This document shows, piece by piece, positions 6,088 to 63,532 of a DNA stretch of 64,000 nt. The stretch is from Rhodospirillales bacterium. Its GTDB lineage: Bacteria > Pseudomonadota > Alphaproteobacteria > Acetobacterales > Acetobacteraceae. The DNA is taken from positions 38,441-102,440 of the forward strand of contig JANPIH010000119.1 of NCBI GenBank assembly GCA_031424895.1, in the 5' to 3' direction. Within the stretch, counting starts at the first letter, position 1; each line of letters starts with the position of its first letter. The notes under the pieces were generated by a model that was not told where the DNA came from, searched no databases, and was given only the letters and a program-made list of their open reading frames with translations. The position numbers and the translations under genes are program-made.

Positions 6088-6888
6088 ATGACCGACAACT
6101 TCGTTGCCATCGAGCGCGGCCTCGGCCCCAATGGCCGCATTGCGCTGGTGCGCTTCGACCGCGGCATTCGCGCCAACCCGCTCTCCACCGAGGCGATGCG
6201 CCAACTCCGCCGCGCCGCCGAGAGCTTCGAGGACGACATGGAAACCTCCGTCGTCATCCTTACCGGCAACGGCCACGCCTTCAGCGCCGGCGCCGACCTC
6301 AAGGACGCCCGCCCCGCCGGCCAATCGATTGCCGAGCGCATCCACCGCCAGCGCAACGGCCCCAAGATGTGCGCCGCCTGGGAACGCATGGAACAGGTGA
6401 CGATCGCCGCCATCGAGGGCTTCGCCATCGGCGGCGGCGCGGCGCTGGCCGTCTCGCTCGACTTCCGCTTCTGCGGCCGCTCCGCCCATTTCCGCATCCC
6501 GGAAGTGGAGCTGGGCATGAACATGTCCTGGGGCTCCATCCCGCGCATGATCGCCCTGATGGGCCCCGCCCGCACCAAGCAAGCCGTCATCCTGGCCAGC
6601 GACCGCATCCCCGCCGAGGACGCGCTGGCCTGGGGCCTGGTGGAGAACGTCGTGGACGACGGCCAGGCGCTCGACGCCGCCATGGCATTCGCCGGCCGCA
6701 TCGCCGAACAACCGCCGCTGCCGGTGCGCATGAGCAAAACCACCGTCAACCGGATCGCCTTCGCGCTGTCCGAATCGATCAGCCATATGGACCCGGATCA
6801 GAACGTGCTGTCGTCGCTCACCGAGGACTACGCGGAGGGGACGGCGGCGTTTCGGGAGAAGAGGAAGCCTAGATTCAAGGGGAGGTAA
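6088..6888 (+). CDS. enoyl-CoA hydratase/isomerase (crotonase) family protein
   Basis: 266 aa with the GNGHAFSAGADLKD crotonase motif. Shine-Dalgarno GGAGCAAGGA precedes the ATG. Confidence 0.85.
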   Translation: MTDNFVAIERGLGPNGRIALVRFDRGIRANPLSTEAMRQLRRAAESFEDDMETSVVILTGNGHAFSAGADLKDARPAGQSIAERIHRQRNGPKMCAAWERMEQVTIAAIEGFAIGGGAALAVSLDFRFCGRSAHFRIPEVELGMNMSWGSIPRMIALMGPARTKQAVILASDRIPAEDALAWGLVENVVDDGQALDAAMAFAGRIAEQPPLPVRMSKTTVNRIAFALSESISHMDPDQNVLSSLTEDYAEGTAAFREKRKPRFKGR

Positions 6889-7018
6889 GCACGTTCTTTT
6901 TTGAAAAAAAGAACCAAAAAACTTTTCCCACTTTGCACCGCGTTCAAACAATCGACTCCGATGCAAAGTGATAAATTGTCTTTTTGCTTCTTTTTCTTCA
7001 GAAAAAGAAGACTCTTTC
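6889..7018. repeat. Family A AT-rich nested-palindrome element, copy A1 (arms H1+H2)
   Basis: H1 GTTCTTTTTTGAAAAAAAGAAC at 6893-6914. H2 CTTCTTTTTCTTCAGAAAAAGAAG at 6987-7010. Central stem CACTTTGCA/TGCAAAGTG. It fills the whole gap between two convergent stop codons (6886-6888 and 7019-7021). Confidence 0.9.
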
Positions 7019-7555
7019 TTACGTCCCTGCCTCCAGCAAAAGCAGCAACCCTTCCAGCACCTCCTCCGGCGGTGGCGGGCAGCCGCGCACCACGAAGTCC
7101 ACCGGCAGCGTGGTGTCCACGCCGCCGGCCACGGCGTAGCTGCCTTTGAACACGCCGCCGTCGATGGCGCAGTCGCCGATGGCGATCACGAACTTGGGGT
7201 CCGGCGCCGCCTCCCACGCCGCCAGCAGCGGCGCTTGCAGTGCGCGCGTTACCGGCCCGGTCACCAGCAGCACTTCCGCCTGGCGCGGGCTGTCGACGAA
7301 GCGCAGGCCGAAGCGGGCGAGGTCGTAGACCACGCTGTCCAGCATCCGCAGCTCCAGCTCGCAGCCGCCGCAGCTGCCGGGGTTGAGGGCGTGCAGCGAC
7401 AGCCCGCGGCCCAGCCGGCGGATGCCGGCCGCCTCCAGCCGCGCCGCGAGGTCCCGGGCAGCTTCGGTGTCCACCGGGGCCAGCGGCCGCGCCGCCGGGC
7501 GGGCGCGCAGGTTGCGCCAGACCCGGCGCAGCGGCGAGGGCGCGTCGTCGGTCAC
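7019..7555 (-). CDS. NuoB/HycG-like small subunit of an Ehr/Hyf-like complex
   Basis: GTG start overlaps the upstream stop (GTGA at 7552-7555). All four cluster cysteines are retained: SCGGCE, GDCAIDGG, GCPPPPEE. Confidence 0.85.
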   Translation of the reverse strand: MTDDAPSPLRRVWRNLRARPAARPLAPVDTEAARDLAARLEAAGIRRLGRGLSLHALNPGSCGGCELELRMLDSVVYDLARFGLRFVDSPRQAEVLLVTGPVTRALQAPLLAAWEAAPDPKFVIAIGDCAIDGGVFKGSYAVAGGVDTTLPVDFVVRGCPPPPEEVLEGLLLLLEAGT

Positions 7556-19293: not shown

Positions 19294-20123
19294 GCACCGA
19301 CGCCGAAACAGTCGAGGCCATCGTCCGCGCCGCCGGCACCAGCTTTCACCGCGGCATGGCGATCCTGCCGCCGCCGCGGCGCCGGGCGATGTACGCCATC
19401 TACGCCTTCTGCCGCATCGTCGACGACATCGCCGACGAGGACTCCCCCTTCGAAGCCCGCAAGCCCCGCCTGGAGGAATGGCGCGCCCATATCGCCGCCC
19501 TCTACCGGGGCGAGACGCACGACGCCGTCACCCGCGAACTCCGGCGGGCCATCGAGGCCTATGCCCTGAAACGCGCGGATTTCGACGCCGTGATCGACGG
19601 CATGGCGATGGACGCCGAGGCCCCCGTCGTCGCACCCGACGAAGCCACGCTGGACCTCTATTGCGACCGCGTCGCCGCCGCCGTCGGCCGCCTTTCCGTC
19701 CGCGCCTTCGGCGATGCCTCGCCCGCCGCCGACCACGTGGCCCACCACCTCGGGCGCGCCTTGCAACTCACCAACATTCTCCGCGATATCCACGAGGACG
19801 CGCAGCGCCAGCGCCTGTATCTGCCGCGCGAGCTGCTCGCCGCCCATGCCATCCCGCGCGACCCGCTTGCGGCGCTCGTCCACCCCGCGCTGCCGCAGGT
19901 TTGCGCAACCCTCGCCGCCCGCGCCCGCCAGCATTTCGAAAGCGCATCGGCGGGGATGGCCCGGTGCGACCGCCGCGCCATGAAACCCGCCCGCCTGATG
20001 GGCGCCACCTATGCCGCCATTCTCGCACGGCTCGAAGCGCGCGGCTGGCATCGGCTTGACCAACCCGTGAAACTCTCGAAATGGGCCAAGCTGCGCATCG
20101 CGTTGCGGCATCTGCTGAGGTAG
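19290..20123 (+). CDS. hpnD: presqualene diphosphate synthase HpnD
   Basis: GTG start overlaps the hpnC stop (GTGA). SFHRGMAILPPPRRRAMYAIYAFCRIVDDIADE. Confidence 0.9.
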   Translation: MSTDAETVEAIVRAAGTSFHRGMAILPPPRRRAMYAIYAFCRIVDDIADEDSPFEARKPRLEEWRAHIAALYRGETHDAVTRELRRAIEAYALKRADFDAVIDGMAMDAEAPVVAPDEATLDLYCDRVAAAVGRLSVRAFGDASPAADHVAHHLGRALQLTNILRDIHEDAQRQRLYLPRELLAAHAIPRDPLAALVHPALPQVCATLAARARQHFESASAGMARCDRRAMKPARLMGATYAAILARLEARGWHRLDQPVKLSKWAKLRIALRHLLR

Positions 20124-20262
20124 AAGGAAAGCATGTTCTTTTTTGAAAAAAAGAACCAAAAAACTTTCGTCCCTTTGCACCGTGTCCGACCGGGAGCCGC
20201 GGTGCAAAGTGGAAAAAGTCTTTTTGCTTCTTTTTCTTCAGAAAAAGAAGATTCTTTCTTGC
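20124..20262. repeat. Family A element, copy A2 (H1+H2), between hpnD and hpnE
   Basis: H1 at 20135-20156 and H2 at 20227-20250. Central stem CTTTGCACCG/CGGTGCAAAG. Begins immediately after the hpnD TAG (20121-20123). Confidence 0.9.
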
Positions 20263-20269
20263 TGTTCCC

Positions 20270-21526
20270 ATGACCCGCATTCACATCATCGGCGCCGGCC
20301 TCGCCGGGCTTTCCGCCGCCGTGGCGATCACCCAGGCGGGCCATGTCGTCACCCTGTACGAATCCGGCCCCGCCGCCGGCGGGCGCTGCCGCTCCTATTT
20401 CGATCGCGAGCTGGGGGCCCGCATCGACAACGGCAACCACCTGCTGCTGTCCGGCAACCGCGCGGCACTGGCCTATCTCGACACCATCGGCGCCGTCGGC
20501 ACGCTGACCGGCCCGGCCGAGCCGCTGTTTCCCTTCATGGACCTGGGCACCGGGGAGCGCTGGATCGTCGCCCCCAATGCCGGGCGCATCCCGTGGTGGG
20601 TGTTCTCGCGGTCGCGCGGCGTGAAGGGCGCGCGCCTGGCCGACTACCTCGCGCTGCTGCGTCTGAAGCGCGCCCGGCCCCACCATACCGTGTCCGAAAC
20701 ACTTGCGGGCGCCGGCACCCTTTACCGCCGCCTGCTCGAACCGCTCGCCATCGCGGCGCTGAACACCATGCCCGATGTCGCCCTGGCGCGCCTGCTGGCC
20801 GCCGTGGTCGACGAAACCCTGGCCCAGGGCGGCGCCGCCTGCCGCCCCCTCGTGCCACGCGAGGGCCTGTCGGAATCCTTCGTCGACCCCGCGCTGGCCT
20901 GGCTCGCCGCGCGCGGCGCCGCGCTGCACACCAACCGCCGCGTTGCCGCCCTGCACGTTGACGGCGGCCGCGTCCACCGCCTGCACACCACCGACGGGCC
21001 GACCGACATCGGCCCCGGCGAAGCGGTCATCCTCGCCGTTCCGCCCTGGGTTGCCACCACCCTGCTCCCCGGCCTGACGGCGCCCGACGCCTTCGAGTCG
21101 ATCGTCAACCTCCACTTCCGCGCCCAGGCGGACCCCGGCCCCGGCGGCTTCGTGGGCCTGGTCGGCGGCACCGCCGAATGGGTGTTCGTCAAGACCGGCC
21201 CCACTCCTGATACTTCAATCGTCTCCACCACCACCAGCGCCGCCAACCGGCATGCCGACGTCTCCGCCGACCATCTCGCTACCGTGTGCTGGGAAGAGGT
21301 CTGCGCGGCCCTCACGTTGTCCGGCCCCCGCCCGCCCTGGCGCCTGGTGCGCGAGAAACGCGCCACCTTCGCCGCCACCGCGGAGCAGGAACGCCGCCGC
21401 CCCGGGCCGCGCACCCGCCTGTCCAACCTCGCCCTGGCCGGCGACTGGACGGCCACCGGCCTGCCCGCCACCATCGAGGGTGCCATCCGCTCCGGCACCA
21501 CGGCTGCTGCGGTGTTGTTGCGGTAG
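20270..21526 (+). CDS. hpnE: hydroxysqualene dehydroxylase HpnE (FAD-dependent amine-oxidase fold)
   Basis: Starts MTRIHIIGAGLAGLSAAVAI (dinucleotide-binding motif). 418 aa, positioned between hpnD and shc. Confidence 0.9.
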   Translation: MTRIHIIGAGLAGLSAAVAITQAGHVVTLYESGPAAGGRCRSYFDRELGARIDNGNHLLLSGNRAALAYLDTIGAVGTLTGPAEPLFPFMDLGTGERWIVAPNAGRIPWWVFSRSRGVKGARLADYLALLRLKRARPHHTVSETLAGAGTLYRRLLEPLAIAALNTMPDVALARLLAAVVDETLAQGGAACRPLVPREGLSESFVDPALAWLAARGAALHTNRRVAALHVDGGRVHRLHTTDGPTDIGPGEAVILAVPPWVATTLLPGLTAPDAFESIVNLHFRAQADPGPGGFVGLVGGTAEWVFVKTGPTPDTSIVSTTTSAANRHADVSADHLATVCWEEVCAALTLSGPRPPWRLVREKRATFAATAEQERRRPGPRTRLSNLALAGDWTATGLPATIEGAIRSGTTAAAVLLR

Positions 21527-21664
21527 GAAGGATCTTCTTTTTCTGAAGAAAAAGAAGCAAAAAGACTTTTGTTCATTTGCTCCGCGCGGGAGTGTTTCAC
21601 ACTGAGCAAATGAATAAAAGTTTTTTGGTTCTTTTTTTCAAAAAAGAACATGCTTTCTTCCTTC
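21527..21664. repeat. Family A element, copy A3 (H2+H1, inverted orientation), between hpnE and shc
   Basis: H2 (rc form CTTCTTTTTCTGAAGAAAAAGAAG) at 21534-21557. H1 (rc form) at 21628-21649. Central stem TTCATTTGCTC/GAGCAAATGAA. Begins right after the hpnE TAG (21524-21526). Confidence 0.9.
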
Positions 21665-23975: not shown

Positions 23976-23988
23976 CCGCCCCCCACAC

Positions 23989-26346: not shown

Positions 26347-27254
26347 TGATGAAGCATCTCCGCCTCAATCTCTGGATTCTGTTCCTCCTGGCCCCGGCGC
26401 TCGCCATCATGGCGACCTTCGTCGCCTGGCCCTTGCTCTCTGCCCTGCGCTACGCCTTCTACAGCTTCAACGGCGTCGCCCCCGGCGCCTTCGTGGGCCT
26501 TGCCAACTTCCACGACGTGCTGTTCGCCGAGCCCTTTGCCGGCTGGACCTGGCGGGCGCTGAAGAACAACATCATCGTCTTCGCCGCGCTGATGGTGGTG
26601 CAGAACGGCCTAGCCTACCTCATCGCCTTCGCCCTGCTGAAGGCCCTGCCTGGCCACCGCGTGCATCAGGTGATCGTATTCCTGCCCGTGGTGCTCTCGG
26701 CCGTCATCGTCGGCTTCCTGTGGAAGCTGTTCCTCCACCCGCTGTTCGGCCTGGTGAACGCCGCGCTGGCCCTCGCGGGCCTTCCCGGCCGCCCCTGGCT
26801 CGGCGATGAATCCACCGCCCTGGGCAGCCTCATCTTCACCAACGCCTGGCACTGGATCGGCTTCCCCGCCCTGATCTTCCTTGCCGGCATGCAGCGCATC
26901 CAGAAGGAAACGCTGGAAGCCGCCCGCATCGACGGCGCCAACGACCGCGTGCTGCTGACGAAGATCATCTGGCCCCTGGTTGCCCCGGCCACCACGATCA
27001 TCTTCACGCTGACCTTCATCGGCAGCTTCAACTGGTTCGAACTGCCCTACGTCATGAGCGGCCTGAACGGCTCCCCAGGCGGGGCCACCGACGTGCTGGG
27101 CCTGTATTTCTATCGGACCGCCTTCGGCAACACGACCTCCGGCCTGCAGGATTTCGGCCGCGGCAGCGCGCTCGCGGTGCTGATGTTCCTGTTCATCGCC
27201 ACCACATCGGCCATCGCGCTGCGCTATCTGCGGCGGAGGGAAATACAGCTTTAG
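26346..27254 (+). CDS. sugar ABC transporter permease (MalF/UgpA type)
   Basis: 302 aa with 6 TM helices. EAA loop KETLEAARIDGANDRVLLTKIIWP. TTG at 26346 and ATG at 26349. Confidence 0.85.
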   Translation: MMKHLRLNLWILFLLAPALAIMATFVAWPLLSALRYAFYSFNGVAPGAFVGLANFHDVLFAEPFAGWTWRALKNNIIVFAALMVVQNGLAYLIAFALLKALPGHRVHQVIVFLPVVLSAVIVGFLWKLFLHPLFGLVNAALALAGLPGRPWLGDESTALGSLIFTNAWHWIGFPALIFLAGMQRIQKETLEAARIDGANDRVLLTKIIWPLVAPATTIIFTLTFIGSFNWFELPYVMSGLNGSPGGATDVLGLYFYRTAFGNTTSGLQDFGRGSALAVLMFLFIATTSAIALRYLRRREIQL

Positions 27255-27398
27255 GCAAGAATCTTCTATTTCTGAAGAAAAAGAAGCAAAAAGACTTTTC
27301 ATTCATTTGCCAATGGCACTGCCGTGCCAAGTTGGCCCGGGCGCAAGGAATGAAGTTTTTTTGCTTCTTTTTGCTCACAAAAAGAAGATTCTTTCCTT
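27255..27398. repeat. Family A element, copy A4 (H2+H3)
   Basis: H2 variant CTTCTATTTCTGAAGAAAAAGAAG at 27263-27286. H3 variant CTTCTTTTTGCTCACAAAAAGAAG at 27364-27387. Starts right after the permease TAG (27252-27254). Confidence 0.85.
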
Positions 27399-28681
27399 CG
27401 CATCACCACTGGCACCAGCACCAGCCAAGCCATGCGTGCCTGATATCGGTCATGCGGTCGCGACAGTGCCCCGCTGGCCGCCGCATTCGCCAGCACCCCC
27501 ACCAGCACCAGCACCGCGAGCTTCTGCCCCCGCGCCGCCAGCACCAGCGTTGCGATCCCGCCCGCCACTAGCACCGCCGCGTGCCAGGGATTGAGAGGCT
27601 CCGCCACCGCGCGCAGGGTTTCCCGCATCTGCCGGCCGGCCCGGAACCGAGCCATTTCGGCGGCCGGGAGGTAGGCCTGCAAGCTTCCGGTGATCGACCC
27701 CTCCAGCCAGTCGTTGCCCAGCGTATCCCCCAGCCGCACCCGCCACAGCTGCTCCCAGACATTCGCCAGCCCGCTGCGCAGCACCCACAGCGGCTCCTGC
27801 ACCAGGGTCGCGCGCACGATTGCCGATGCCTCGGGCGCCAGCGCCATCGGCCCGCCCGTTGACCACACGGGCCCCCAGTCCTTCCACAGGAACAGGTCGC
27901 TGTCGTCCGGGAACCGCCCCTGCCAGTCGCACAGCTTCCAGCCTGCCGCCGGGCATTCCCGCGCCAGCACGGCCTGCGCCGGCCCGTCCGTTACCAGCCG
28001 CGCCAGGGCAAACACGCTGCCGTAAGGCGAAATCCCGAACCGCCCATGCCCCACCGCATTGGTCGCCAGCAGCACCGCCAGCGCCACCCCCAGCGGCGCC
28101 AGCACGATCCGCCGCCCCCCCAGCAACAAGGCCACCACCCCCACCGCCAGCGCCAGCGGCAGATAGGAGAGATGGCTCGCGATCGCGAAACTCCCGAGCG
28201 CCCGCAACCACGCCTGCACCGGCCAGCCCAGCCGTGCATACCCCAGCAGGAACAGGCACAGCACCACCATCGACGCCAGAATGTCCGGCATCAGCAGCGA
28301 GGCGAACCACGGCGCCGCCGACAACGCCGCCAATCCCGCGCACAGCGCCAGATGAAACCGCCAGCCCGGCACCGCGAACGCCCCGCGCACCAGCCACAAC
28401 AGATGCGACAGCACCAGAACCTGCGCCGTCAACGGCAGCCACAGCGTCAGCCGCAGATGCAACAGCGCCAGCACCGGCCCGAACACGAACGGCTTGTCCC
28501 ACACCATCTGTGGCGCGCCGCCCTGCACCAGGAAGGCATGCGTGTCGCTGAATACGATCGGAAACCCGTTCACCAGCGCGGGCCACGACAGCAGCGCCGC
28601 ACCGGCGAGGATGGCGAGGATCGAAGTCAGGAAAGAATCTTCTTTTTCTGTAGAAAAAGAAGCAAAAAGACTTTTGTTCAT
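27299..28681 (-). CDS. polytopic membrane protein of unknown function (both termini lie inside Family A elements)
   Basis: Long hydrophobic ORF with G/C-biased third positions between A5 and A4. The only in-frame start (MNKSLFASFSTEKEDSFL...) and the last ~35 codons are repeat-derived. Confidence 0.6.
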   Translation of the reverse strand: MNKSLFASFSTEKEDSFLTSILAILAGAALLSWPALVNGFPIVFSDTHAFLVQGGAPQMVWDKPFVFGPVLALLHLRLTLWLPLTAQVLVLSHLLWLVRGAFAVPGWRFHLALCAGLAALSAAPWFASLLMPDILASMVVLCLFLLGYARLGWPVQAWLRALGSFAIASHLSYLPLALAVGVVALLLGGRRIVLAPLGVALAVLLATNAVGHGRFGISPYGSVFALARLVTDGPAQAVLARECPAAGWKLCDWQGRFPDDSDLFLWKDWGPVWSTGGPMALAPEASAIVRATLVQEPLWVLRSGLANVWEQLWRVRLGDTLGNDWLEGSITGSLQAYLPAAEMARFRAGRQMRETLRAVAEPLNPWHAAVLVAGGIATLVLAARGQKLAVLVLVGVLANAAASGALSRPHDRYQARMAWLVLVPVVMRRKESSFCEQKEAKKLHSLRPGQLGTAVPLANE

Positions 28682-28754
28682 TTGCGCCGTGTCCAGGCCT
28701 GCAGAAGAATGAAAGTTTTTGGTTCTTTTTTCTCTAAAAAGAGGGCATTCTTTC
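28629..28754. repeat. Family A element, copy A5 (H2 + degenerate H1)
   Basis: H2 CTTCTTTTTCTGTAGAAAAAGAAG at 28639-28662. Degenerate H1 GTTCTTTTTTCTCTAAAAAGAGGG at 28722-28745. The right flank ATTCTTTCC is contiguous with the nitroreductase TAG (28755-28757). Confidence 0.85.
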
Positions 28755-29432
28755 CTACAAGAAACTGGCAATCTCGCCGAATCTCTTCTTCACCCCGCCC
28801 GCCACCGGCACCTCGCACCCTTCGGCCGGATACCCCACCACCAGCAGGATGCTCGGTTTCTCATGCGCCGGCCGGGCGCAGAGTTCGTTCAGGAAGTTCA
28901 TCGGCGCCGGCGTATGCGTCAGCGTCGCCAGCCCCGCGTTGTGCAATGCGGCGATCAGGAACCCGGTGGCGATGCCCACGCTCTCGGGCACGTAATAGTG
29001 CTTCACCTGGCTGCCATCGGCCGCGATGCCATGCCGTTGCGCGAAGATGGCAATGAGCAGCGGCGCGGTTTCCAGGAACGGCTTGCTGGCATTGGTGCCC
29101 AGCGGCGCCAGCGCGTCGAGCCATTGCTCCGGTGCCTTGCCGCCGTGGTAGAAGGCGTATTCCTCCCGCTCGGCCAGTTCGCGCAGCCGCCGTTTGCGCG
29201 CCGGGTCGGCGATCACCGCGAAATGCCACGGCTGCTGGTTCGCCCCCGACGGTGCCCGCCCTGCGGTCTGGATCGCCGCCTCCACCACCGCCATCGGCAC
29301 GGCCCGGTCGGCAAAATCGCGCACACTGCGCCGGCGCGCCATCACCGCCAGGAACGCCTCCGCGCGCGCCACCATCTCCTCCGGCGGGCGCTCGGCGAAG
29401 TCCAGCGCCTGCATTGCCGCCGCGTCCTGCAT
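28755..29432 (-). CDS. nitroreductase family protein
   Basis: RRSVRDF motif, [10 protein letters not shown], colinear with oxygen-insensitive nitroreductase / iodotyrosine-deiodinase-like proteins. The start (29432 or 29414) is uncertain. Confidence 0.8.
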
Positions 29433-35428: not shown

Positions 35429-36395
35429 ACCTCATCACCACGCCCACGTAGGTCCGGTCATCCGTTGCCTTGGTCGAGCGGAAGCGGCCGGTCTTGGCGG
35501 GGTCTGTGGCTTCGACCTCGGTGCGGGCCGCCTCCCACGCCGCCAGGGTGGGCGTGGCGCCGGGGGCGAAGTAGCCGTCGGTGAACAGTTCCAGCGTGTC
35601 GATGGTGCGGGCCTCCACAGTGGTGATGCGCATCAGGGTGCGCGGCACCGGGAAGCCGTCGAGGCAGGCGTAGCCGAGGATCGAATCCGGCGCGTTCTGG
35701 TAGTCGCCCTGGGCGCCGACGATACCGCGCGTGAGCAGGTGGACGATGTCGGCGCGGGGCACGTGCGGCAGGGTGGCGAGGCATTCCGCCTCGGCGGCGG
35801 CGGCGATGGCGGCGAGGTCCGCAGGGGCGAAATGCGGGGCAAGCGCCGCCGGGTCCTGGCCGATGCCTTTCCAGGTGACCTGGCGGGCGACGGCGTCGCG
35901 CAGGGCTGGGTCGGCGTGCGGGAGGAAGTGCCACGCGTGGCTGCGCAGGGTGGCGGTGATGCGGTCGAGGTCCTTGTTCATCTGGAGCACCTGCCGGCCG
36001 TTGAGGCGGATGCCGCTGTCGCCGACCAGCACGAGGTGAAGCTGCGTGCCGTCTTGAACCGCCAGCGCCAGGGTGCAGCACAGGCGCGCGCCCCAGCTGG
36101 CCTCGGCGGCGGCCAGCGTGCCGTGGCGCAGATAGGCCTCGTGCAGCGTTGCGGTCAGGGTGGGGACGATGGATTCCACCGGCGGCGGCGCGGCCAGCAG
36201 CAGGCGTTCCAGCGTGGCGGCAACCAGGCGCGCGGCATGGCGGCCAGACAACTCGCCGCCATAGCGCGTGCCGGTGCGGTCGGAGACGCCGTCAATCACC
36301 GCATAGGCGCGGCCAGGGAGAACGACGAAAGCGTCCTCGTTGGCGTCGGGGCGGGCGGGGTCGCGGGAGGCGGTGAAGGCTTCGAGGTGGATCAA
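35427..36395 (-). CDS. PP2C-like protein phosphatase domain protein
   Basis: NEDAFVVLPGRAYAVIDGVSDRTG and LVGDSG resemble PP2C/SpoIIE motifs. The TTG start abuts repeat A6, so the start is uncertain. Confidence 0.5.
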   Translation of the reverse strand: MIHLEAFTASRDPARPDANEDAFVVLPGRAYAVIDGVSDRTGTRYGGELSGRHAARLVAATLERLLLAAPPPVESIVPTLTATLHEAYLRHGTLAAAEASWGARLCCTLALAVQDGTQLHLVLVGDSGIRLNGRQVLQMNKDLDRITATLRSHAWHFLPHADPALRDAVARQVTWKGIGQDPAALAPHFAPADLAAIAAAAEAECLATLPHVPRADIVHLLTRGIVGAQGDYQNAPDSILGYACLDGFPVPRTLMRITTVEARTIDTLELFTDGYFAPGATPTLAAWEAARTEVEATDPAKTGRFRSTKATDDRTYVGVVMR

Positions 36396-36528
36396 GGAGA
36401 AGTCTTCTTTTTGTGAACAAAAAGAAGCAAAAAAACTTTATCCATTTACGCCTCGCTTGACGGGTTGAACGCGTAGCAAATGGGGGAAAGTTTTTTGGTT
36501 CTTTTTTTCAAAAAAGAACATTCTTCCT
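36396..36528. repeat. Family A element, copy A6 (H3+H1)
   Basis: H3 CTTCTTTTTGTGAACAAAAAGAAG at 36404-36427. H1 (rc form) at 36498-36519. Central stem CCATTTACGC/GCGTAGCAAATGG (imperfect). Confidence 0.9.
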
Positions 36529-36535
36529 CATGCCA

Positions 36536-37702: not shown

Positions 37703-37746
37703 GGCCGGGACTGTCACGCGAAGGGGTGGAAGGGTCAAGCGGACAG

Positions 37747-37888
37747 GAAAGGAAGCGGTTCTTTTTTGAAAAAAAGAACCAAAAAACTTTCATTCCTTGC
37801 GCGGTGGCAAATGATCGGGCGCGGTGCAAAGGATAAAAGTCTTTTTGCTTCTTTTTCTACAGAAAAAGAAGATTCTTTCTTTCTTTCC
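37747..37888. repeat. Family A element, copy A7 (H1+H2), in a divergent promoter region
   Basis: H1 at 37758-37779. H2 variant CTTCTTTTTCTACAGAAAAAGAAG at 37848-37871. Flanks GGAAAGGAAG ... CTTTCTTTCTTTCC. Confidence 0.9.
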
Positions 37889-37952
37889 CGGGCAGGGTTG
37901 AGCGCCGGCCGCCTTTGCGTCAGCATCGCGCAAAACAACGGAGGACGCGCCC

Positions 37953-41715: not shown

Positions 41716-41817
41716 GGCAAGGAAGGCCTTCTTTTTGTGAACAAAAAGAAGCAAAAAAACTTTATGACTTAGGAAGAAAAGTTTTTTGGTTCTTTTTTTC
41801 AAAAAAGAACTGCTTAA
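41716..41817. repeat. Family A element, copy A8 (H3+H1), minimal form without the central stem-loop
   Basis: H3 at 41728-41751 and H1 (rc form) at 41789-41810. Only ~37 nt lie between the palindromes. The right end abuts the galU TAA (41818-41820). Confidence 0.85.
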
Positions 41818-42696
41818 TTAGAGACCGGCGCAGTAGGTCTTGAGGAAGCCTTTCACCGCGTCCGCCATCTCGGGGCGCTTGAGGGCGAAGGCGATCTGCG
41901 CCTCCAGGAATCCGATCTTGTCGCCGCAGTCGAAGCGGCGGCCTTCGTAGCGCAGGCCGTGGAACGGCACCTGGCCGATCAGCTTGGCCATGCCGTCGGT
42001 CAGTTGCACCTCGTTGCCCGCGCCGCGTTCCATGCGTGCGAGGTGCTCGATCACCTGCGGCAGCAGCACGTAGCGGCCAATGATCGACAGGTTCGACGGC
42101 GCGTCCTCCGGCTTCGGCTTTTCCACCAGGCCGCGCACCTCGGCCATGCGGCCGTCATCGGCGCCAATGTCCAGGATGCCGTAGCGGTTGGTCTGGTCGC
42201 GCGGCACTTCCGTCACGGCCACCACGCAGCCGCCGGTTTCGTAGTAGGCGTCGGCCAGCTGCTTGGTGCACGGCGTTTCGGACAGCACGAGGTCGTCGGG
42301 CAACAGGATGGCGAAGGGGTCGTCGCCGATGAAGGCGCGCGCGCACCAGATGGCATGGCCAAGGCCCAGCGGCTCCTGCTGGCGGACCGTCACCATGGCG
42401 CCGGGCTCCATCTGCCAGGCGCGCAGCTCGTCCAGTTCCTTCTGCTTGCCGCGGCTGCGCAGGGTGGCCTCCAGCTCGAACGCGATGTCGAAATGCTCGA
42501 CGATGGCGGTCTTGCCGCGGCCGGTGACCAGGCAGAACTGCTCGATCCCCGCCGCGCGGGCTTCCTCGATCGCGTACTGGATCAATGGCTTGTCCACCAC
42601 CGGCAGCATTTCCTTGGCGGTTGCCTTGGTGGCGGGCAGGAAGCGCGTGCCGAGGCCGGCGACGGGAAGCACGGCCTTGCGGAGCGGCTTGATCAC
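41818..42696 (-). CDS. galU: UTP--glucose-1-phosphate uridylyltransferase
   Basis: GTG start after an AAGGAA Shine-Dalgarno. KAVLPVAGLGTRFLPATKATAKEMLPVVDKP signature. Confidence 0.9.
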   Translation of the reverse strand: MIKPLRKAVLPVAGLGTRFLPATKATAKEMLPVVDKPLIQYAIEEARAAGIEQFCLVTGRGKTAIVEHFDIAFELEATLRSRGKQKELDELRAWQMEPGAMVTVRQQEPLGLGHAIWCARAFIGDDPFAILLPDDLVLSETPCTKQLADAYYETGGCVVAVTEVPRDQTNRYGILDIGADDGRMAEVRGLVEKPKPEDAPSNLSIIGRYVLLPQVIEHLARMERGAGNEVQLTDGMAKLIGQVPFHGLRYEGRRFDCGDKIGFLEAQIAFALKRPEMADAVKGFLKTYCAGL

Positions 42697-44306: not shown

Positions 44307-44365
44307 GGCGAGCAGGGTGGCGAGCGAGGCGAGGCCGAGGAGGAGGGCGATCTTGGGGGGCTGGG

Positions 44366-44606
44366 ATAAGGAAGATTCTTCTTTTTGTGAACAAAAATAA
44401 GCAAAAAAACTTTATCCGCTGGGGTGGGGGCAAATGGATCGGGGGTGCGTGGCGTGGCCGGAAGGAAGCGTCGATTGCTTCGCCAGGGCTCGCAATGACG
44501 GGGTTGGTATGGCGTGTCCCCTCCGGCTCCCCACGCTTCGCAGGGGGAGGCAACAATAAAATGAATGAAGTTTTTTTGCTTCCTTTTGTTCACAAAAAGA
44601 AGGCTC
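44366..44606. repeat. Family A element, copy A9 (H3+H3) with a ~140 nt GC-rich insert in the centre
   Basis: H3 variant CTTCTTTTTGTGAACAAAAATAAG at 44378-44401. H3 (rc) CTTCCTTTTGTTCACAAAAAGAAG at 44579-44602. The right end abuts the maeB TAA (44607-44609). Confidence 0.8.
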
Positions 44607-46898
44607 TTACTTTACCCTATGTGCGTGGGCTTCCACCGCGGCGATGGCACTGACGTTGACGATGCCGCGCGCGGTGACGCTGGGTGTCAGGACATGGATC
44701 GGCTTGCTCATGCCCAGCAGCAGCGGGCCGACCGGCAGCGCGTCGGCGGCGGCTTTCAGCAGGTTGAAGGCGATGTTGGCGGCGTCGAGATTTGGCATGA
44801 TCAGCAGGTTGGCGGTGCCGGTCAGCCGGCTGTCGGGCACGGCGCGGTTGCGGATGGCTTCGACCAGGGCGGCATCGGCCTGCAGCTCGCCGTCCACTTC
44901 CAGGTCCGGCGCACGCGTGCGGATCAGCGCCAGCGCCTCTCGCATCTTGCGGGCCGAGGGCGCGTTGGAGCCGCCGTAGCTGGAGTGGGACAGCAGGGCG
45001 GCCTTGGGCGCGAGGCCGAAGCTGCGCACCCCGTCGGCGGCCAGCAGGGTCATCTCGGCGATCTGCTCCGCCGTGGGGTCGGTGACCACGTAGGTGTCGG
45101 CGATGAACAGCGCGCCGGCGGGCAGGATCAGGCACGACAGCGCGTAGAAGCGGCTGACTTCCGGGCGACGCGGGATGATCGGGACGATGTATTGCATGTG
45201 CCGCCACCAGTCCCCGGTGCCGCCGCAGATGGCGGCATCGGCAAGCCCGGCCTGGAGCAGCATCGCGGCGGCAACCGTCGAGCGGGTGCGCAGGCGCCTG
45301 GCGGCGGCGTCAGGGGGCGCGCCGCGGCGGCCGACCAGGCGCTGGTATTCACCCAGCAGCGGGCCGAACACCGCCTCGTCGCGCGCCGGGTCGACGATGC
45401 GCACACTGTCGTCGAGGTCCATCCGCAGCCCCATCGCGGCCACGCGGGCGGCGATCACGTCGCGGCGGCCGATCAGGATGGGCTCGGCGATGCCGTCGTC
45501 CACCAGCGTCTGCACGGCGCGCAGGGTGCGTTCGTCCTCGCCCTCGGCATAGACGATGCGCGCAAGGTGGGGGCGGGCGGGGTGCGCCTTCGCCGCCTCG
45601 AACACCGGGCGCATCAGCTGGCCGGAGCGGAACACGAAGCGTTCGAGTTCGGCGGTATAGGCGGCGAAGTCGGCGATCGGGCGGCGCGCGACGCCGCTGG
45701 CCATCGCGGCACGGGCGACCGCGGGGGCGATCTGGAGAATGAGGCGCGGGTCGAACGGCTTGGGGATGATGTAGTCGCGCCCGAACACCGGCGCCGCCCC
45801 GCCATAGGCGGCTGCGACCACCTCGCTGGCCTCGATGCGCGCCAGCACGGCGATCGCTTCCACGGCGGCGAGCTTCATCGCCTCGTTGATCTCCCTCGCC
45901 CCGCAATCCAGCGCGCCGCGGAAGATGAACGGGAAGCACAGCACGTTGTTGACCTGGTTGGCATAGTCGCTGCGCCCGGTGGCCACGATCGCGTCGGGGC
46001 GGACATGGCGCACCGCCTCTGGCAGGATTTCCGGCTCGGGATTGGCCAGGGCCAGGATCAGCGGGTTGGGGGCGAGCTTGTGCAGCCACTCGGCCTTGAG
46101 CACGCGCGGTGCCGACAGGCCCATGAAGATGTCCGCGCCATCGAGCACCTGATCGAGCGTGCGCGCATCGGTGCGCCGCGCGTAGGGGCGCATGCGGTCG
46201 TCCAGCCCGTCGCGGTCGGCGTGGACCACGCCCTTGATGTCCGTCAGCGTCACGTGGTCGGCCTTCAGGCCCATCGCCACCAGCAGGTCGACGCAGGCCA
46301 GCGCCGCGGCCCCCGCGCCGGAGGTGACCAGCTTCACCTCCGCGAGGGTCTTGCCCTGGACCAGCAGCGCGTTGCGCACCGCGGCGGCCACCGTGATGGC
46401 GGTGCAGTGCTGGTCGTCGTGGAACACCGGGATGCCCATGCGCCCGCGCAGCTTCTCCTCGATGTAGAAGCACTCCGGCGCCTTGATGTCTTCCAGGTTG
46501 ATGGCGCCGAAGGTGGGCTCCAGGGCTGCGACCACGTCGCAGAAGCGGTCGGGGTCCTGCTCGTCCACCTCGATGTCGAACACGTCGATGCCGGCGAACT
46601 TCTTGAACAATACGGCCTTGCCCTCCATCACCGGCTTGCTGGCCAGCGCCCCGATGTTGCCCAGGCCCAGCACGGCGGTGCCGTTGGAGATGACGGCGAC
46701 CAGGTTGGCGCGCGCGGTGTACAGATAGGCGTCGTCGGGGTTCTCCACGATCGCCTCGCAGGCAGCGGCCACGCCCGGCGAATAGGCCAGCGCCAGGTCG
46801 CGCTGCGTTGCCATCCGCTTGGTCGCCTCGATCGCCAGCTTCCCCGGGCGCGGAAGGCGGTGATAGTCCAGCGCTGCGCGGCGGAAGTCGTCGTCCAT
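44607..46898 (-). CDS. maeB: NADP-dependent malic enzyme (malic enzyme + phosphate-acetyltransferase-like domain)
   Basis: Starts [27 protein letters not shown]... ~763 aa and colinear with MaeB. ORF 44607..47081 was trimmed because its 5' part is repeat A10 sequence. Confidence 0.9.
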
Positions 46899-47035
46899 GA
46901 ACGGGTCCTGAGCTTGCGCCGACAATTGGTGCGGCTTCCCCTGTATGGCACGCCGCCGAAGCCTGCGCGACTTGCAGTGCGGGCGGGGCGGGGCAAGAAT
47001 GTGGAGCGCCTGAACGGCGTTGCGGAGGAAGAGGG

Positions 47036-47178
47036 AGGGAAGTATGTTCTTTTTTGGAAAAAAGAACCAAAAAACTTTCATTCCATGGCACTGCGCCCGA
47101 TCTGTTGAATACCGTTCTAATGGATAAAAAGTCTTTTTGCTTCTTTTTATTCAGAAAAAGAAGATTCTTGCTTTCTTG
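47036..47178. repeat. Family A element, copy A10 (H1+H2), in a divergent promoter region
   Basis: H1 variant GTTCTTTTTTGGAAAAAAGAAC at 47046-47067. H2 variant CTTCTTTTTATTCAGAAAAAGAAG at 47140-47163. Confidence 0.9.
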
Positions 47179-47192
47179 AAGGAGCCCACACG

Positions 47193-52799: not shown

Positions 52800-53594
52800 C
52801 TATTCTCCGATCGAAAGCAGGGCGCCGCTGGTGCGCGCGGCGCGGAACTGGCGGGCAAACAGCAGGATGGACGCGGCCGTCCAGGCGAGGTTCAGCCCGG
52901 CGGCCCAGGCCAGGTGGTCCCAATGGATCGTGCCGGTGTCGAGCACGGCGCGCATGCCTTCGAACACGTGCGCCGCCGGCAGGGCGAGCGCCACCGGCTG
53001 CAGCAGAGCGGGCAGGATGCTCACCGGGTAGAACACCGCGGCAAACGGCGTGATGCCGAACAGCACGCTCCACGCCAGCGCCTCCGCCCCCGCGCCATGG
53101 CGCAGGATCAGCGAGATGACGCCGAGCGCGATCCACCAGCCCATCACCATCAGGTTCAGTGCGAACAGCACCAGGATCGGCCCCATGGCGAACAGGTTGA
53201 ACGCATACAGCGCCCAGGCCAGCAGCACCGCCGGCAGCACGCCGATCGCCATGCGGATCGCGCTCATCGCCAGCAAGGCCGCCACCAGCTCCCACGGGCG
53301 CAGCGGCGAGACGAAGACGTGGCCGAGATTGCGTGACCAGATCTCCTCCAGGAAGGAAATCGCCATGCCCATCTGGCTGCGCAACGCCACCTCCCACAGC
53401 AACACGCCGCCCAGCAGCAGGGAAGCGGCGATCTGGCCCTCCACGCCGATGCGGCTGGCAATGAAGGCGGCGGTGAAACCCCAGATGAACATCTGCAGTG
53501 TCGGCCAATAGGCCAGCTCCAACAGGCGCGGCCAGGAGCGGCGATACAGGGCAAGATGGCGATACATCAGGCCCCAGATGCGGCGCAATGTCAA
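52800..53594 (-). CDS. ABC-2 type transporter permease
   Basis: 264 aa with 6 TM helices, starting MTLRRIWGLMYRHLALYRRSWPRLL. The TTG start abuts repeat A11. Confidence 0.8.
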   Translation of the reverse strand: MTLRRIWGLMYRHLALYRRSWPRLLELAYWPTLQMFIWGFTAAFIASRIGVEGQIAASLLLGGVLLWEVALRSQMGMAISFLEEIWSRNLGHVFVSPLRPWELVAALLAMSAIRMAIGVLPAVLLAWALYAFNLFAMGPILVLFALNLMVMGWWIALGVISLILRHGAGAEALAWSVLFGITPFAAVFYPVSILPALLQPVALALPAAHVFEGMRAVLDTGTIHWDHLAWAAGLNLAWTAASILLFARQFRAARTSGALLSIGE

Positions 53595-53718
53595 AGGAAG
53601 CGTTCTTTTTTGAAAAAAAGAACCAAAAAACTTTCATTCCATTGCACCGAGACTCGGCGACCAGCAAATGGATGAAGTTTTTTTGCTTCTTTTTGTTCAC
53701 AAAAAGAAGATTCTTGCT
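53595..53718. repeat. Family A element, copy A11 (H1+H3), between the ABC ATPase and its permease
   Basis: H1 at 53602-53623 and H3 (rc form) at 53686-53709. Central stem CCATTGC/GCAAATGG. It fills the gap between the ATPase TGA (53719-53721) and the permease start (53594). Confidence 0.9.
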
Positions 53719-54459
53719 TCACTTCGTCCCCTCCCGCCGGTTGCGTGCGATGTCGAGGAACACTTGTTCCAGGTCGTCGCGGTTGTATCGCGCGAGCAGG
53801 TCCGCGGGGCTGCCCTGGTCGACGATGCGGCCGGTTTTCATCATCAGCACGTGCGAGCACAGGCGTTCCACCTCGGCCATGTTGTGGCTGGCGAGCAGGA
53901 TGGTGCAGCCGGTGGCGGCGCGGTAGCGTTCCAGCCAGCTGCGGACCATGTCGCCGGTATCGGGGTCCAGGCTGGCGGTGGGTTCGTCGAGCAGCAGCAA
54001 TTCGGGGCGGTTGATCAGCGACTTGGCCAGCGCCACGCGGGTTTTCTGCCCGGCGGAGAGCTGGCCGGCGGGGCGGGCGAGCAGGTCGGCGAGGTCGAGT
54101 TCGGCGGCGAGTTCGCGGATGCGCGCTTCCACCCCGGGCACGCCGTAGAGGTGGCCATAGACGCGCAGGTTCTCGGCGACCGACAGGCGGGCGGGCAGCG
54201 AGACGTAGGGGGATGAGAAGTTCATCCGCGCCAGGGCGGCGAAGCGGTCGCGCGCCATGTCGTGGCCGAGCACGTGGATGGTGCCGGCGGTGGGGATCAG
54301 CAGGCCCATCAACATGGCGATGGTGGTGGTTTTGCCCGCGCCGTTGCCGCCGAGCAGGCCGATGGTCTGCCCGCGCGCCGCTGAGAAGGACAGCGCATCG
54401 ACCGCGAGGGTCTCGCCGTAGCGCTTGGTGAGGCCGCTTACGCGGATCGCATCGGTCAT
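53719..54459 (-). CDS. ABC transporter ATP-binding protein
   Basis: Walker A GGNGAGKTT, signature LSAGQ, Walker B LLLLDEP, H-loop ASHN. Confidence 0.9.
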   Translation of the reverse strand: MTDAIRVSGLTKRYGETLAVDALSFSAARGQTIGLLGGNGAGKTTTIAMLMGLLIPTAGTIHVLGHDMARDRFAALARMNFSSPYVSLPARLSVAENLRVYGHLYGVPGVEARIRELAAELDLADLLARPAGQLSAGQKTRVALAKSLINRPELLLLDEPTASLDPDTGDMVRSWLERYRAATGCTILLASHNMAEVERLCSHVLMMKTGRIVDQGSPADLLARYNRDDLEQVFLDIARNRREGTK

Positions 54460-59103: not shown

Positions 59104-59238
59104 GCAAGGCCTTCTTTTTGTGGACAAAAAGAAGCAAAAGAACTTTATTCATTGGACCGATGCCTGACGTTCTCGCGTACGCGAGAGAATAAAAGTTTTT
59201 TGGTTCTTTTTTTCAAAAAAGAACATCCTTCCCTTTCC
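59104..59238. repeat. Family A element, copy A12 (H3+H1)
   Basis: H3 variant CTTCTTTTTGTGGACAAAAAGAAG at 59111-59134. H1 (rc form) at 59203-59224. Central hairpin TTCTCGCGTACGCGAGAA. Starts right after the hldA TAA (59101-59103). Confidence 0.9.
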
Positions 59239-61217: not shown

Positions 61218-61777
61218 TGGTGCGCGCCCACGGGCTCGATCCCGGGCCGACGCAGCGGCCGTTGGCGACAGGCGCGCTGGCGGGGCTTCTGGCGTCGTTG
61301 CCGGCGATTGCGGTGCTGGAGGAGTTTGGCTGGCTGGATGCGCTGGCGCATGCCATCGGGGGTGCAGCGCTCGGCAGCGTGGCGGTGGCGCTGGCGTGTG
61401 CTGCGGTGCTGACGGTGGCGGGGCTGCTGTATGGGCTGCTGTTCGGGCGCGGCGCGAACGACCCGCTGGGCGGGTGGCTGTTCGGCCTGGCGTTCGGGTT
61501 CCTGCTGTGGATGCTGCTGTCGGTGGTGTTGCTGCAATTTCTGCCGGCGACCGAAAGCGGGCGGCCGGTGTTCATCGGGCGGCCGGTGATGGGGCTGCTG
61601 CTGGGGGCGCTGGTGTGGGGGGCGGGGCTGGGTGCCGCCTTCCCGCCGCTGCACCGGAAGCTGCGGGCGGGGCTGGACGATAACGAGATGGAGGAGCGGC
61701 CCAGTGCGGCCAAGGTGGGGCCGGAGGCGGCGGCGATGCCGGAACTGGGGCGGAACCCGAAGAAAGCGGTAGGGTAG
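61208..61777 (+). CDS. membrane protein of unknown function
   Basis: 189 aa with 4-5 hydrophobic segments. It is weakly similar in character to the N-terminal domain of the preceding gene. Confidence 0.55.
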   Translation: MISMVRAHGLDPGPTQRPLATGALAGLLASLPAIAVLEEFGWLDALAHAIGGAALGSVAVALACAAVLTVAGLLYGLLFGRGANDPLGGWLFGLAFGFLLWMLLSVVLLQFLPATESGRPVFIGRPVMGLLLGALVWGAGLGAAFPPLHRKLRAGLDDNEMEERPSAAKVGPEAAAMPELGRNPKKAVG

Positions 61778-61910
61778 GAAGCAGTTCTTTTTTGGAAAAA
61801 AGAACCAAAAAACTTTCATGACTTCGCACCGTGGCTGGAACACCAGCCTCGGTGCAAATGGATAGAAAGTCTTTTTGCTTCTTTTTCTTCAGAAAAAGAA
61901 GATTCTCCCT
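61778..61910. repeat. Family A element, copy A13 (H1+H2), between convergent stop codons
   Basis: H1 variant at 61784-61805 and H2 at 61878-61901. Central stems GCACCG/CGGTGC and GGCTGG/CCAGCC. Flanked by the TAG at 61775-61777 and the TAG (rc) at 61913-61915. Confidence 0.9.
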
Positions 61911-61912
61911 GG

Positions 61913-63094: not shown

Positions 63095-63156
63095 GACAGG
63101 GCTCCTCGTGACGCGACGCGACTGTCGCATCCTCGGCGGAGTTCGGCCAGCCTGGA

Positions 63157-63292
63157 GGAAGGAAGAATGTTCTTTTTGAAAAAAGAACCAAAAACTTTTC
63201 ATTCATGGCACCGTGCGCGATCATCAAGACCCGGTGCCATGAATAAAAAGTCTTTTTGCTTCTTTTTCTTCAGAAAAAGAAGAATCTTATAT
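63157..63292. repeat. Family A element, copy A14 (H1+H2)
   Basis: H1 (short form GTTCTTTTTGAAAAAAGAAC) at 63169-63188 and H2 at 63259-63282. Central stem CATTCATGGCACCG/CGGTGCCATGAATAA. Confidence 0.9.
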
Positions 63293-63298
63293 GAACAC

Positions 63299-63532
63299 TC
63301 AGCCCGCTTGCACGAAAACTTCCGCGCCGCCGACGCGTACATGGGAGAAATGGCCGCGCGCGCCGGGGATGGCTGCTTCGGCTGTTTCGCGGCTGGGGTA
63401 GAGCGTGGCGCCGGCGGCACGGACCGCATAGGCGCGGACCGTGTCGACTTCGGCGGTTTCCAGTGCGTCCTCGAACGCGGGGTTGGCGGCCAGGGCGTAG
63501 GCGCTGTGGCGGACGAGGACGTACTGGGTCAT
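63299..63532 (-). CDS. small hypothetical protein (77 aa)
   Basis: Starts MTQYVLVRHSAYALAANPAFEDALE... G/C-biased third positions. No family recognised. Confidence 0.4.
   Translation of the reverse strand: MTQYVLVRHSAYALAANPAFEDALETAEVDTVRAYAVRAAGATLYPSRETAEAAIPGARGHFSHVRVGGAEVFVQAG

Follow-up and report, generated by a model that had tools for sequence, protein, structure and literature searches.

An AT-rich palindromic repeat at stop codons and within operons of Acetobacteraceae, with candidate relay reading frames at some junctions

We analysed a 64,000-nt stretch of DNA from a Rhodospirillales bacterium of the Acetobacteraceae (contig JANPIH010000119.1, positions 38,441 to 102,440), hereafter the window, and describe here a palindromic repeat, Family A, that lies at gene ends and inside operons along its length. 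Genes in the window were called from GC3 (third-codon-position G+C) periodicity and Pfam, which assigns hpnD (SQS_PSY), hpnE (amine oxidase), shc, an ABC ATPase, an ABC-2 permease and a PfkB kinase. The closest match to hpnE (88%) comes from a freshwater Acetobacteraceae genome assembled from a metagenome. For comparison, we retrieved hpnE loci from 80 genomes and added 120 metagenome stretches that share a conserved 32-mer of the Family A element; retrieved loci carry L numbers, and stop-codon statistics were drawn from a sample of related loci totalling ∼2 Mb.

The G+C content of the window is 70.2%, and 14 sharply AT-rich islands of ∼100–255 nt stand out from it, all belonging to one repeat family (A1–A14). 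Copies occur about once per 4–5 kb and typically measure ∼140 bases; repeat and composition analysis places them where a preliminary description of the window, made from its letters, had put them. Alignment of the 28 half-elements in the window shows that the unit consists of two homologous modules of ∼60 nt, inverted around a variable GC-containing hairpin. From the outside in, each module has a purine-rich arm with the consensus AAGGAAGnAT (positions −9 to −3 conserved, AAGRAAG); a perfect or near-perfect A/T palindrome of 22–24 nt, which is either of L type (GTTCTTTTTTGAAAAAAAGAAC) or of R type (CTTCTTTTTCTTCAGAAAAAGAAG, with a variant ...GTGAAC...); an A-tract, CAAAAA(G)ACTTT; and a segment, ATTCATTTGCACCG, that pairs with the partner module across the centre. 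The copies and their neighbours are as follows.

A1, 6881..7024, plus strand: L..R element between convergent genes; TAA of an enoyl-CoA hydratase gene (6886-6888) 4 nt before the L palindrome, and TAA of a NuoB-like gene (7019-7021, minus strand) 8 nt past the R palindrome.
A2, 20124..20262, plus strand: L..R element at the hpnD/hpnE junction; arm 20124-20134, L palindrome 20135-20156, variable GC hairpin ∼20174-20211, R palindrome 20227-20250, arm 20251-20262.
A3, 21527..21664, minus strand: R'..L' element; TAG of hpnE (21524-21526) 7 nt before the palindrome at 21534, and ATG of shc (21706) 56 nt beyond the palindrome end at 21649.
A4, 27252..27400, unstranded: R'..R element between convergent genes; TAG of a permease gene (27252-27254) flush with the element.
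A5, 28631..28755, minus strand: degenerate L' palindrome; TAG of a nitroreductase gene (28755-28757, minus strand) flush with the element.
A6, 36394..36530, minus strand: TGA of an acyl-CoA dehydrogenase gene (36536-36538, minus strand) 16 nt from the L' palindrome, and TTG start of a PP2C-like gene (36395) 8 nt from the R' palindrome; no relay open reading frame (see below).
A7, 37745..37891, plus strand: divergent intergenic region.
A8, 41719..41819, minus strand: short centre; TAA of an NTP-transferase gene (41818-41820, minus strand) 7 nt from the palindrome, and PGM start (41686) 41 nt off; orthologous copy in L211.
A9, 44360..44614, unstranded: 255-nt R'..R variant with a GC-rich centre of ∼120 nt; TAA of the malic enzyme gene (44607-44609, minus strand) 4 nt from the palindrome; site empty in L211.
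A10, 47034..47185, plus strand: divergent intergenic region.
A11, 53590..53727, plus strand: between the TGA of the ABC ATPase gene (53719-53721, minus strand) and the TTG of the ABC-2 permease gene (53592-53594, minus strand).
A12, 59105..59238, minus strand: TAA of the PfkB kinase gene (59101-59103) 7 nt before the palindrome; GH1 start at least 34 nt beyond the far end.
A13, 61773..61911, plus strand: between convergent stops, TAG 61775-61777 (plus strand) and TAG 61913-61915 (minus strand).
A14, 63153..63304, plus strand: no credible adjoining stop; next supported gene end at 63549.

A credible stop codon lies 4–16 nt from a terminal palindrome in 11 of the 14 copies, and in each of these it falls within the ∼10-nt arm or at its margin. 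The preliminary description had counted 12 such copies. Its twelfth is probably a doubtful open reading frame (ORF), the only basis on which A14 could be counted, since the end of the Pfam-supported FYDLN_acid gene is 245 nt distant. The junctions that it quoted are exact: TAG-AAGGAAAG after hpnD (20121-20123), TAG-GAAGG after hpnE, TAA-GCAAGG after the PfkB kinase gene and ...TTTCC-TA at 28755. It was also right that A1 and A13 span the gap between convergent stop codons, each with a stop at both ends, and that the other junctions of the hopanoid operon are GTGA, ATGA and GTGA. Pfam backs the gene identities behind its placement of A2 in hpnD/hpnE, A3 in hpnE/shc and A11 in the ABC ATPase/permease pair. 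Its count of A7 and A10 as the only divergent copies stands as a count but not as a bias. An element is found in 2 of the 7 divergent intergenic regions of the window, in 3 of the 7 convergent ones and in 9 of the 41 co-directional ones; thus divergent regions are not avoided, and two divergent copies are what random placement would give.

The right-hand gene at A4 does not stop at the element: this minus-strand membrane-protein gene (27299-28573) extends inside, with its last 33 codons (...RRKESSFCEQKEAKKLHSLRPGQLGTAVPLANE, then the stop) encoded by A4. The same is seen in L001, and in A4-free genomes the gene overlaps the convergent permease gene instead. In L001, L006 and L059, the gene downstream of A5 has its start codon (TTG) inside the arm; in the window CTG stands where relatives have TTG, making the start doubtful. 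In the region 44290-44420 (minus strand), the DnaJ-like gene beside A9 has AAG at the position of the ATG found in the element-free L211, and no canonical in-frame start occurs upstream before a stop inside the element. This gene may have lost its conserved N-terminal hydrophobic segment or may use a non-canonical start.

Placement at stop codons extends to the ∼2 Mb of related loci. For 37 of 43 gene 3′ ends adjoining a module, the stop codon begins 5–20 nt before the palindrome, and in 60 of 61 such 3′ flanks a stop codon begins with the first T beyond the palindrome (TAA in 33, TAG in 14, TGA in 13). Codon choice is shifted as well. Stops by elements number 38 TAA, 19 TAG and 15 TGA, compared to 82, 105 and 209 in other genes on the same contigs, a shift toward TAA with a Fisher P value of ∼1e-7.

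Comparison of filled and empty orthologous sites, which the preliminary description had called for, shows where the insertions fall. At the hpnD/hpnE junction, the empty states are GGCTGATGG (L001, TGATG), GGATGACC (L002, ATGA) and TAGGCAATG (L007). The site is filled in the window and in L003–L006, L008 and L059, with the length of hpnD kept and its stop changed to a TAG or TAA at the arm edge; in L003–L006 and L059, the hpnE ATG abuts the far arm. The hpnE/shc site is empty in L004–L008, which have a 13-nt spacer, and filled in L001, L002, L003 and L059. Here the HpnE C-terminus is shorter and variable where the site is filled, an exception to the constant length of the upstream protein. A possible "old stop codon" downstream of A3 was also considered, which would place the insertion within the coding end of hpnE. 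At the window junction 15354/15405, only L059 has an element, and it lies 0–1 nt past the stop although a spacer of ∼50 nt is present. L001 has an element at the A4 site, which L006 and L059 lack, and the upstream permease is unchanged. In L211 an element follows the PGM stop, with TGA replaced by TAA and the protein length the same; beside A9, malic enzyme is one to two residues longer, which is another exception. The ABC ATPase/permease junction is filled in five lineages and empty in five (ATGA in four, TTGA in one).

Presence and absence differ between related genomes, which supports past or present mobility of the element. These comparative sequence data give good support for insertion at the stop codon itself or within it, also where stop and start of coupled genes overlap by 4 nt, and in most cases the upstream protein does not change; the preliminary suggestion that the insertion target is the stop-codon region is borne out by the empty and filled sites. 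The element lands at a gene boundary, at or in the stop codon, ATGA, TTGA and TGATG overlaps included. This leaves a stop, mostly TAA or TAG, at the outer edge of the arm and the upstream protein at its length.

To describe the family beyond the window, we collected 361 module matches in the ∼2 Mb; the retrieved loci contain 115 paired elements and 130 unpaired modules. Hetero-pairs (L+R) make up ∼89% of the paired elements, with L-L, R-R and single modules also found, and the median span between outer palindrome edges is 116 nt. Folded as single strands, whole elements reach −37 to −61 kcal/mol (z-scores of −3.7 to −7.2), and a rod form and a three-hairpin form are almost isoenergetic. Pairing is maintained through compensatory substitution: palindrome pair 14-37 is divided between GC (101 modules) and CG (87), with hardly any mismatches, while pair 23-28 is TA in 145, CG in 36 and GC in 11. 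Between the two halves, positions in the inner stem and in the arms next to the palindromes co-vary more than permutation predicts. Ten orthologous comparisons gave 95% identity for the 36-nt module cores, 61% for the centres and 80–86% for flanking genes; the centre retains hairpin potential and loses sequence. On this sequence evidence, either purifying selection or homogenisation through gene conversion keeps the modules alike. After insertion, modules and hairpin potential are retained as the centre drifts. No match to the window was found in Rfam at gathering thresholds, and an E-value search returned only sub-threshold generic hairpins; nor did we meet the palindrome sequences in the literature searched.

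From its placement, mobility and structure, we consider it probable that Family A is a previously undescribed, high-copy mobile palindrome of Acetobacteraceae, similar to repetitive extragenic palindromic (REP) sequences and to miniature inverted-repeat transposable elements (MITEs), which targets stop codons and is read through in operons.

The ends of the elements were examined for traces of the insertion reaction. They usually read T-N-A at the arm edge, with TAA inward at both ends the commonest arrangement (22 of 96), a pattern that fits TA duplication with A...T termini. TGA...TGA at the ABC junction in five genomes, together with seven direct-type TCA/TGA pairs, fits a 3-bp TNA duplication. 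At gene 5′ flanks the motif is often TCA (TGA outward), overlapping the start codon as TTGA. Permutation gave no significant excess among 109 elements of either the 3-bp TNA duplication (11 versus 9.2) or the TNA inverted end (14 versus 12), and TA at both ends had an odds ratio of 2.0 (P = 0.14).

A transposase gene does occur within some copies. In L159 (298-1206) and L201–L205, a 240-aa DDE_Tnp_IS1595 gene lies between inverted modules, and the inverted repeat extends through the A-tract, as if Family A were a MITE derived by internal deletion from this IS1595-family insertion sequence (IS). We regard that origin as very improbable. The IS1595-family element has 19-nt inverted repeats of its own (GGGGCTGGCCTAGATAAGC), which Family A elements lack. 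In L206 it is placed off-centre in a complete element and is flanked by an 8–9-bp duplication, AAAACTTT(T); in L207 it sits in the opposite module. The flanking modules differ from site to site while the transposase is identical. Given its own repeats and duplication, and the differing modules, this IS was rejected as the autonomous parent and is instead a passenger that targets the A-tract. It occupies at least seven genomic sites, each of them within a Family A element and at its CAAAAAACTTT tract; the element centre is missing from five, as if integration had crossed the hairpin stem. By the usual description of a MITE, Family A thus shows inverted terminal repeats, small size and no transposase, and the one transposase found inside the repeats, with its differing ends, does not qualify as an autonomous partner. 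Integron attC sites, which share conserved ends, a variable centre and a position right after stop codons, were considered and rejected because the genes beside Family A belong to the syntenic core (hopanoid, ABC, sugar metabolism) and are not cassettes.

The closest known class is that of the REPs. Insertion sequences that target REPs are known, and Family A is likewise targeted by a specific IS. If Family A were a classical REP, the 22–24-nt palindromes would be the REPs and the doublet a REPIN (REP doublet forming a hairpin), with a REP-associated tyrosine transposase (RAYT) moving single-stranded hairpins without target duplication. Inverted doublets and singlets are present, in L-L, R-R and L-R combinations; there is no consistent target duplication; and the placement is identical. 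REPs between convergent genes lie <20 bp from both ORFs, co-directional REPs hug the upstream stop at a variable distance from the downstream gene, and REP termini can provide the stop codon (PMC3733652). Against this, no conserved GTAG/CGTC tag adjoins the palindrome, the neighbouring positions being nAT and AAGRAAG; GTAG or GTAA occurs only ∼7–11 nt away, and only at some gene 3′ flanks. The ∼89% preference for hetero-pairs would not be predicted for simple REPINs, the stems are rich in A/T rather than G/C, the TGA...TGA at the ABC site resembles a 3-bp duplication, and no RAYT gene was identified, although no genome-wide search was made. Acetobacteraceae are themselves among the families without CGTC repeats (PMC3733652). 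We therefore doubt that Family A is a classical REP/REPIN. It has the short, high-copy extragenic palindrome and the doublets and singlets of that class; because the tag is missing, we file it as a new REP/MITE-like family and not as a GTAG/CGTC REP. Family A thus resembles REPs, bacterial interspersed mosaic elements and REPINs in its high-copy extragenic palindromes, occurring as singlets and inverted doublets, in stop-hugging placement and in IS targeting, and differs in its larger module (∼60 nt), its A/T stems in a 70% G+C genome, its two module types and the variable GC hairpin in mid-element. REPs within 15 nt of a stop codon affect translation (cited in PMC12306157).

Three further groups of repeats bear comparison. 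Enterobacterial repetitive intergenic consensus sequences (ERIC, also called intergenic repeat units, IRU) and the Correia/NEMIS elements of Neisseria are imperfect palindromes of 100–155 bp, found in transcribed regions beside or inside operons. They form long RNA hairpins that influence mRNA processing, stability or termination. Their TA-type target agrees with the frequent TAA...TTA ends of Family A; the Family A sequence, however, is unrelated, has a perfect palindrome at each end and shows no consistent TA duplication. We know of no description of ERIC or Correia elements in which a relay ORF has 4-nt overlaps at both ends. Like the Rickettsia palindromic element and intragenic REPs (PMC3733652), Family A would be translated, in the 33-codon tail at A4 and in relay ORFs of 39–50 codons, but a relay is a separate small ORF coupled to both neighbours and not an insertion within a protein. 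Bidirectional intrinsic terminators, the third group, share with Family A the order of A-rich tract, hairpin and U-rich tract, the symmetry between strands and the location between convergent genes.

This last likeness had led the preliminary description to propose a mobile terminator or attenuator, i.e. an element whose last hairpin and U-rich arm halt RNA polymerase in either direction and insulate its neighbours. Outward from each end, a 10–11-bp palindrome is followed by a pyrimidine- or U-rich arm (AUUCUUUCUU), and a lenient terminator scan flags these. Many copies lie right behind stop codons or between convergent genes, where terminators are expected, and the whole element is able to form a long hairpin flanked by an A-tract and a U-tract. 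The layout originally described, with the order of A-tract, hairpin and U-tract, holds only loosely, the GC hairpin and the U-run lying 10–14 nt apart. The central hairpin of A2 (−27 kcal/mol) has no adjoining U-tract, GGAAAAAGUC preceding any U-run. What the lenient scan picks is the terminal palindromes alone, with 10 pairs, 3 of them G-C, and the tail ATTCTTTCTT. These A/U-rich stems fold at −10 kcal/mol on the R side and −6.6 to −7.2 kcal/mol on the L side, near shuffled controls (z-scores of −1.3 to −2.3), and terminator-like matches in the scanned regions are not in excess (13 versus 10.5 ± 4.1 after shuffling).

Genomic context points the same way. Copies are kept at the hpnD/hpnE/shc and ATPase/permease junctions of several genomes, and scanning the elements for sigma-70 promoters gave no promoter-like site. 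As hpnE, shc and the permease gene are intact behind these copies with no promoter-like site, efficient termination is unlikely for copies inside operons. Conserved relay ORFs, described below, imply that ribosomes cross the element, and divergent promoter regions, too, hold copies at the background rate. Family A therefore differs from bidirectional terminators in the weak stems before its U-arms, in a GC hairpin set off from the U-tract, and in operon-internal and divergent-promoter copies, some of them spanned by conserved ORFs. As an account of the family as a whole, the terminator reading seems to us unlikely, and for operon-internal copies the sequence data disfavour a terminator function. 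Partial attenuation or stabilisation of mRNA 3′ ends is possible.

If termination does not occur, an operon-internal element would be transcribed and read through, and at some junctions the sequence suggests how translation might cope. Two relay ORFs run through elements of the window.

Relay ORF through A2, 20133..20273, plus strand: 46 codons; ATG bordering the L palindrome, 9 nt past the hpnD TAG; TGA overlapping the hpnE ATG (ATGA).
Relay ORF through A11, 53591..53722, minus strand: 43 codons, spanning the whole element; GTG overlapping the ATPase TGA (GTGA), and TGA overlapping the permease TTG (TTGA).

Equivalents are found at the same junctions elsewhere. At hpnD/hpnE, the relay has 40 codons in L003–L006 and L059 and 39 in L008, where 4 nt separate its TAA from the hpnE ATG behind it. 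The relay at the ABC junction has 45 codons in each of L211 and L221 (TTGA), 50 in L218 (ATGA) and 48 in L216 and L217 (ATGA). One end is always GTGA and the other TTGA or ATGA in five genomes, and the frame is kept despite changes in the length of centre and arms (129, 135, 150 and 144 nt). The public gene call for L218 lists this relay as a 50-aa gene with 4-nt overlaps on both sides. Examples of the relay peptides begin VKDSSFCEQKEAKKL and MFFFEKKNQKTF. Independent relay loci lie beside long GC3-rich ORFs in L137 (GTGA...ATGA), L138 (TGATG...TGATG; ...TTGA), L141 and L187. Relay-like ORFs were counted in 4 of 16 sense co-directional cases, compared to 0 of 16 in antisense.

Such ORFs would arise readily, as stop codons are sparse in several frames of the arms and modules and a start codon often lies beside a Shine-Dalgarno-like AAGGAAG. 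An element landing in an ATGA or TTGA overlap would create a relay ORF with 4-nt overlaps to both neighbours, running from the upstream stop through the element to the downstream start, and selection would then keep it. Ribosomes would be handed from gene to relay to gene across the mobile palindrome, preserving translational coupling, and hairpin-dependent termination would also be suppressed. Two split operon junctions with a conserved spanning ORF imply read-through, and the ribosomes would melt the hairpins. We advance only tentatively, and judge somewhat less probable than its opposite, the proposal that the element is suited to entering translationally coupled operons without polarity through relay ORFs kept by selection. 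The argument for selection draws in part on recurrence at unrelated loci. No MITE or REP linked to translational coupling in this way was met in the literature searched.

Several observations weigh against this proposal or against the wider view of Family A as a mobile, selected element. A3, A6, A8 and A12 have no relay ORF, so a relay is not a general property of the family. Whatever the context, an open frame often runs through the element, with at least one in ∼80% of element/direction combinations, and we found no enrichment in the sense direction (81% sense, 88% antisense, 78% other). Given the lack of a general enrichment, the relay claim is confined to specific junctions. There, the case for selection would rest on frame-preserving length changes (three at the ABC junction and one at hpnD/hpnE), corresponding to roughly P = 0.01. 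The filled ABC copies, moreover, are not independent: they share common ancestry, similar centres and the same orientation, and a neighbour-joining tree of the ATPase, with star-like deep branches, does not separate one insertion followed by losses from repeated insertions. Conservation of the modules could reflect gene conversion among hundreds of copies and not selection on each. Target-site duplication is inconsistent, with a clean TGA...TGA at the ABC site only. Finally, no transposase or RAYT is tied to Family A; none occurs among the 36 Pfam-scanned proteins of the window, and no genome-wide search was made.

The conservation pattern also invites an explanation at the level of DNA, namely that Family A is a host element that binds or is bent by a nucleoid or topology protein, with gene ends merely tolerated positions. 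The A/T palindromes and phased A-tracts stay 95% identical in orthologous copies while the centre drifts, the symmetry of the palindrome is that expected for a dimeric binder, copies occur in divergent regions too, and co-directional copies in the window show no orientation bias relative to transcription (four L-first, three R-first). Set against these points, no protein partner is known for the palindromes, and the compensatory changes fit hairpins in RNA or single-stranded DNA as well. A binding site would be compatible with the precision at stop codons and with the relay ORFs, although it leaves both unexplained. We consider such a host element improbable.

The distribution of modules is patchy. 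They are present in the close freshwater clade (L001–L006, L008 and L059), except L007, in L022, L053, L054, L056 and L058, and in some Acidocella-like genomes assembled from metagenomes, as well as in peat, moss and lake metagenomes. Each of two plasmids of Pseudoroseomonas cervicalis has a single, unannotated copy, and the one inspected is stop-flush. This copy (L215:6001-6124; plasmid NZ_CP115852.1, 258695-258818) is a typical L..R element from a cultured strain; it directly adjoins the TAA of a FAD-binding oxidoreductase gene, and the GGAGG Shine-Dalgarno sequence of the downstream YciI gene lies just outside its other arm. A partial match (26% of the query) occurs in one plasmid of Acidiphilium multivorum. 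Modules are absent from 66 other Acetobacteraceae-type hpnE loci (1.24 Mb), including those of Asaia, Gluconobacter and Rhodopila. They are also absent from L213 (20.7 kb; ATPase 93% identical in amino acid sequence) and L007 (11.9 kb; HpnE 76%), which are syntenic with several window copies. The module-free state of these close relatives indicates that proliferation of Family A is lineage-specific.

Other repeats and insertions in the window are separate from Family A. A second, GC-rich family (...GGCCGAGCCCCTGGACC...GGGCCGCCGGCCCTT...) occupies 3875-4029, 5875-6002, 13685-13835 and 43787-43855; its copies are intergenic, lie in both orientations and are 75–94% identical. Most of the "direct repeat families" reported by the repeat finder in 9000-13750 and 27450-28500 (D1, D3, D5, D9 and others) are not repeat elements and were rejected as such; they are alanine- and GC-rich low-complexity coding DNA in membrane-protein genes with 4-nt overlaps. 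Immediately 3′ of shc lies a segment of ∼625 nt (23634-24258) that carries a PhdYeFM-type antitoxin gene (23634-23975). The segment is missing at the syntenic loci L001, L002, L006 and L059, identifying it as a lineage-specific insertion.

What sets Family A apart is its two-module architecture and the conserved relay ORF at some junctions. By analogy with REP, ERIC and Correia elements, our analysis suggests that its general role is most likely that of a transcribed structural element which modulates mRNA 3′ ends, stability or attenuation, and which possibly binds protein. If our interpretation is correct, an unannotated repeat family makes up a few percent of some Acetobacteraceae genomes and is present, likewise unannotated, in cultured Pseudoroseomonas and Acidiphilium replicons. 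The family also serves an IS1595-family IS as a specific landing pad. Caution would be needed in annotating these repeats as terminators, or the ORFs that span them as ordinary genes. The family would provide clear comparative evidence for a bacterial repeat that targets stop codons, even where coupled genes overlap by 4 nt. With the conserved relay ORFs comes a model, open to direct testing, of how operons tolerate such insertions; if the model holds, they would represent a new mode of coexistence between repeat and operon and a new source of tiny, obligatorily translated ORFs.

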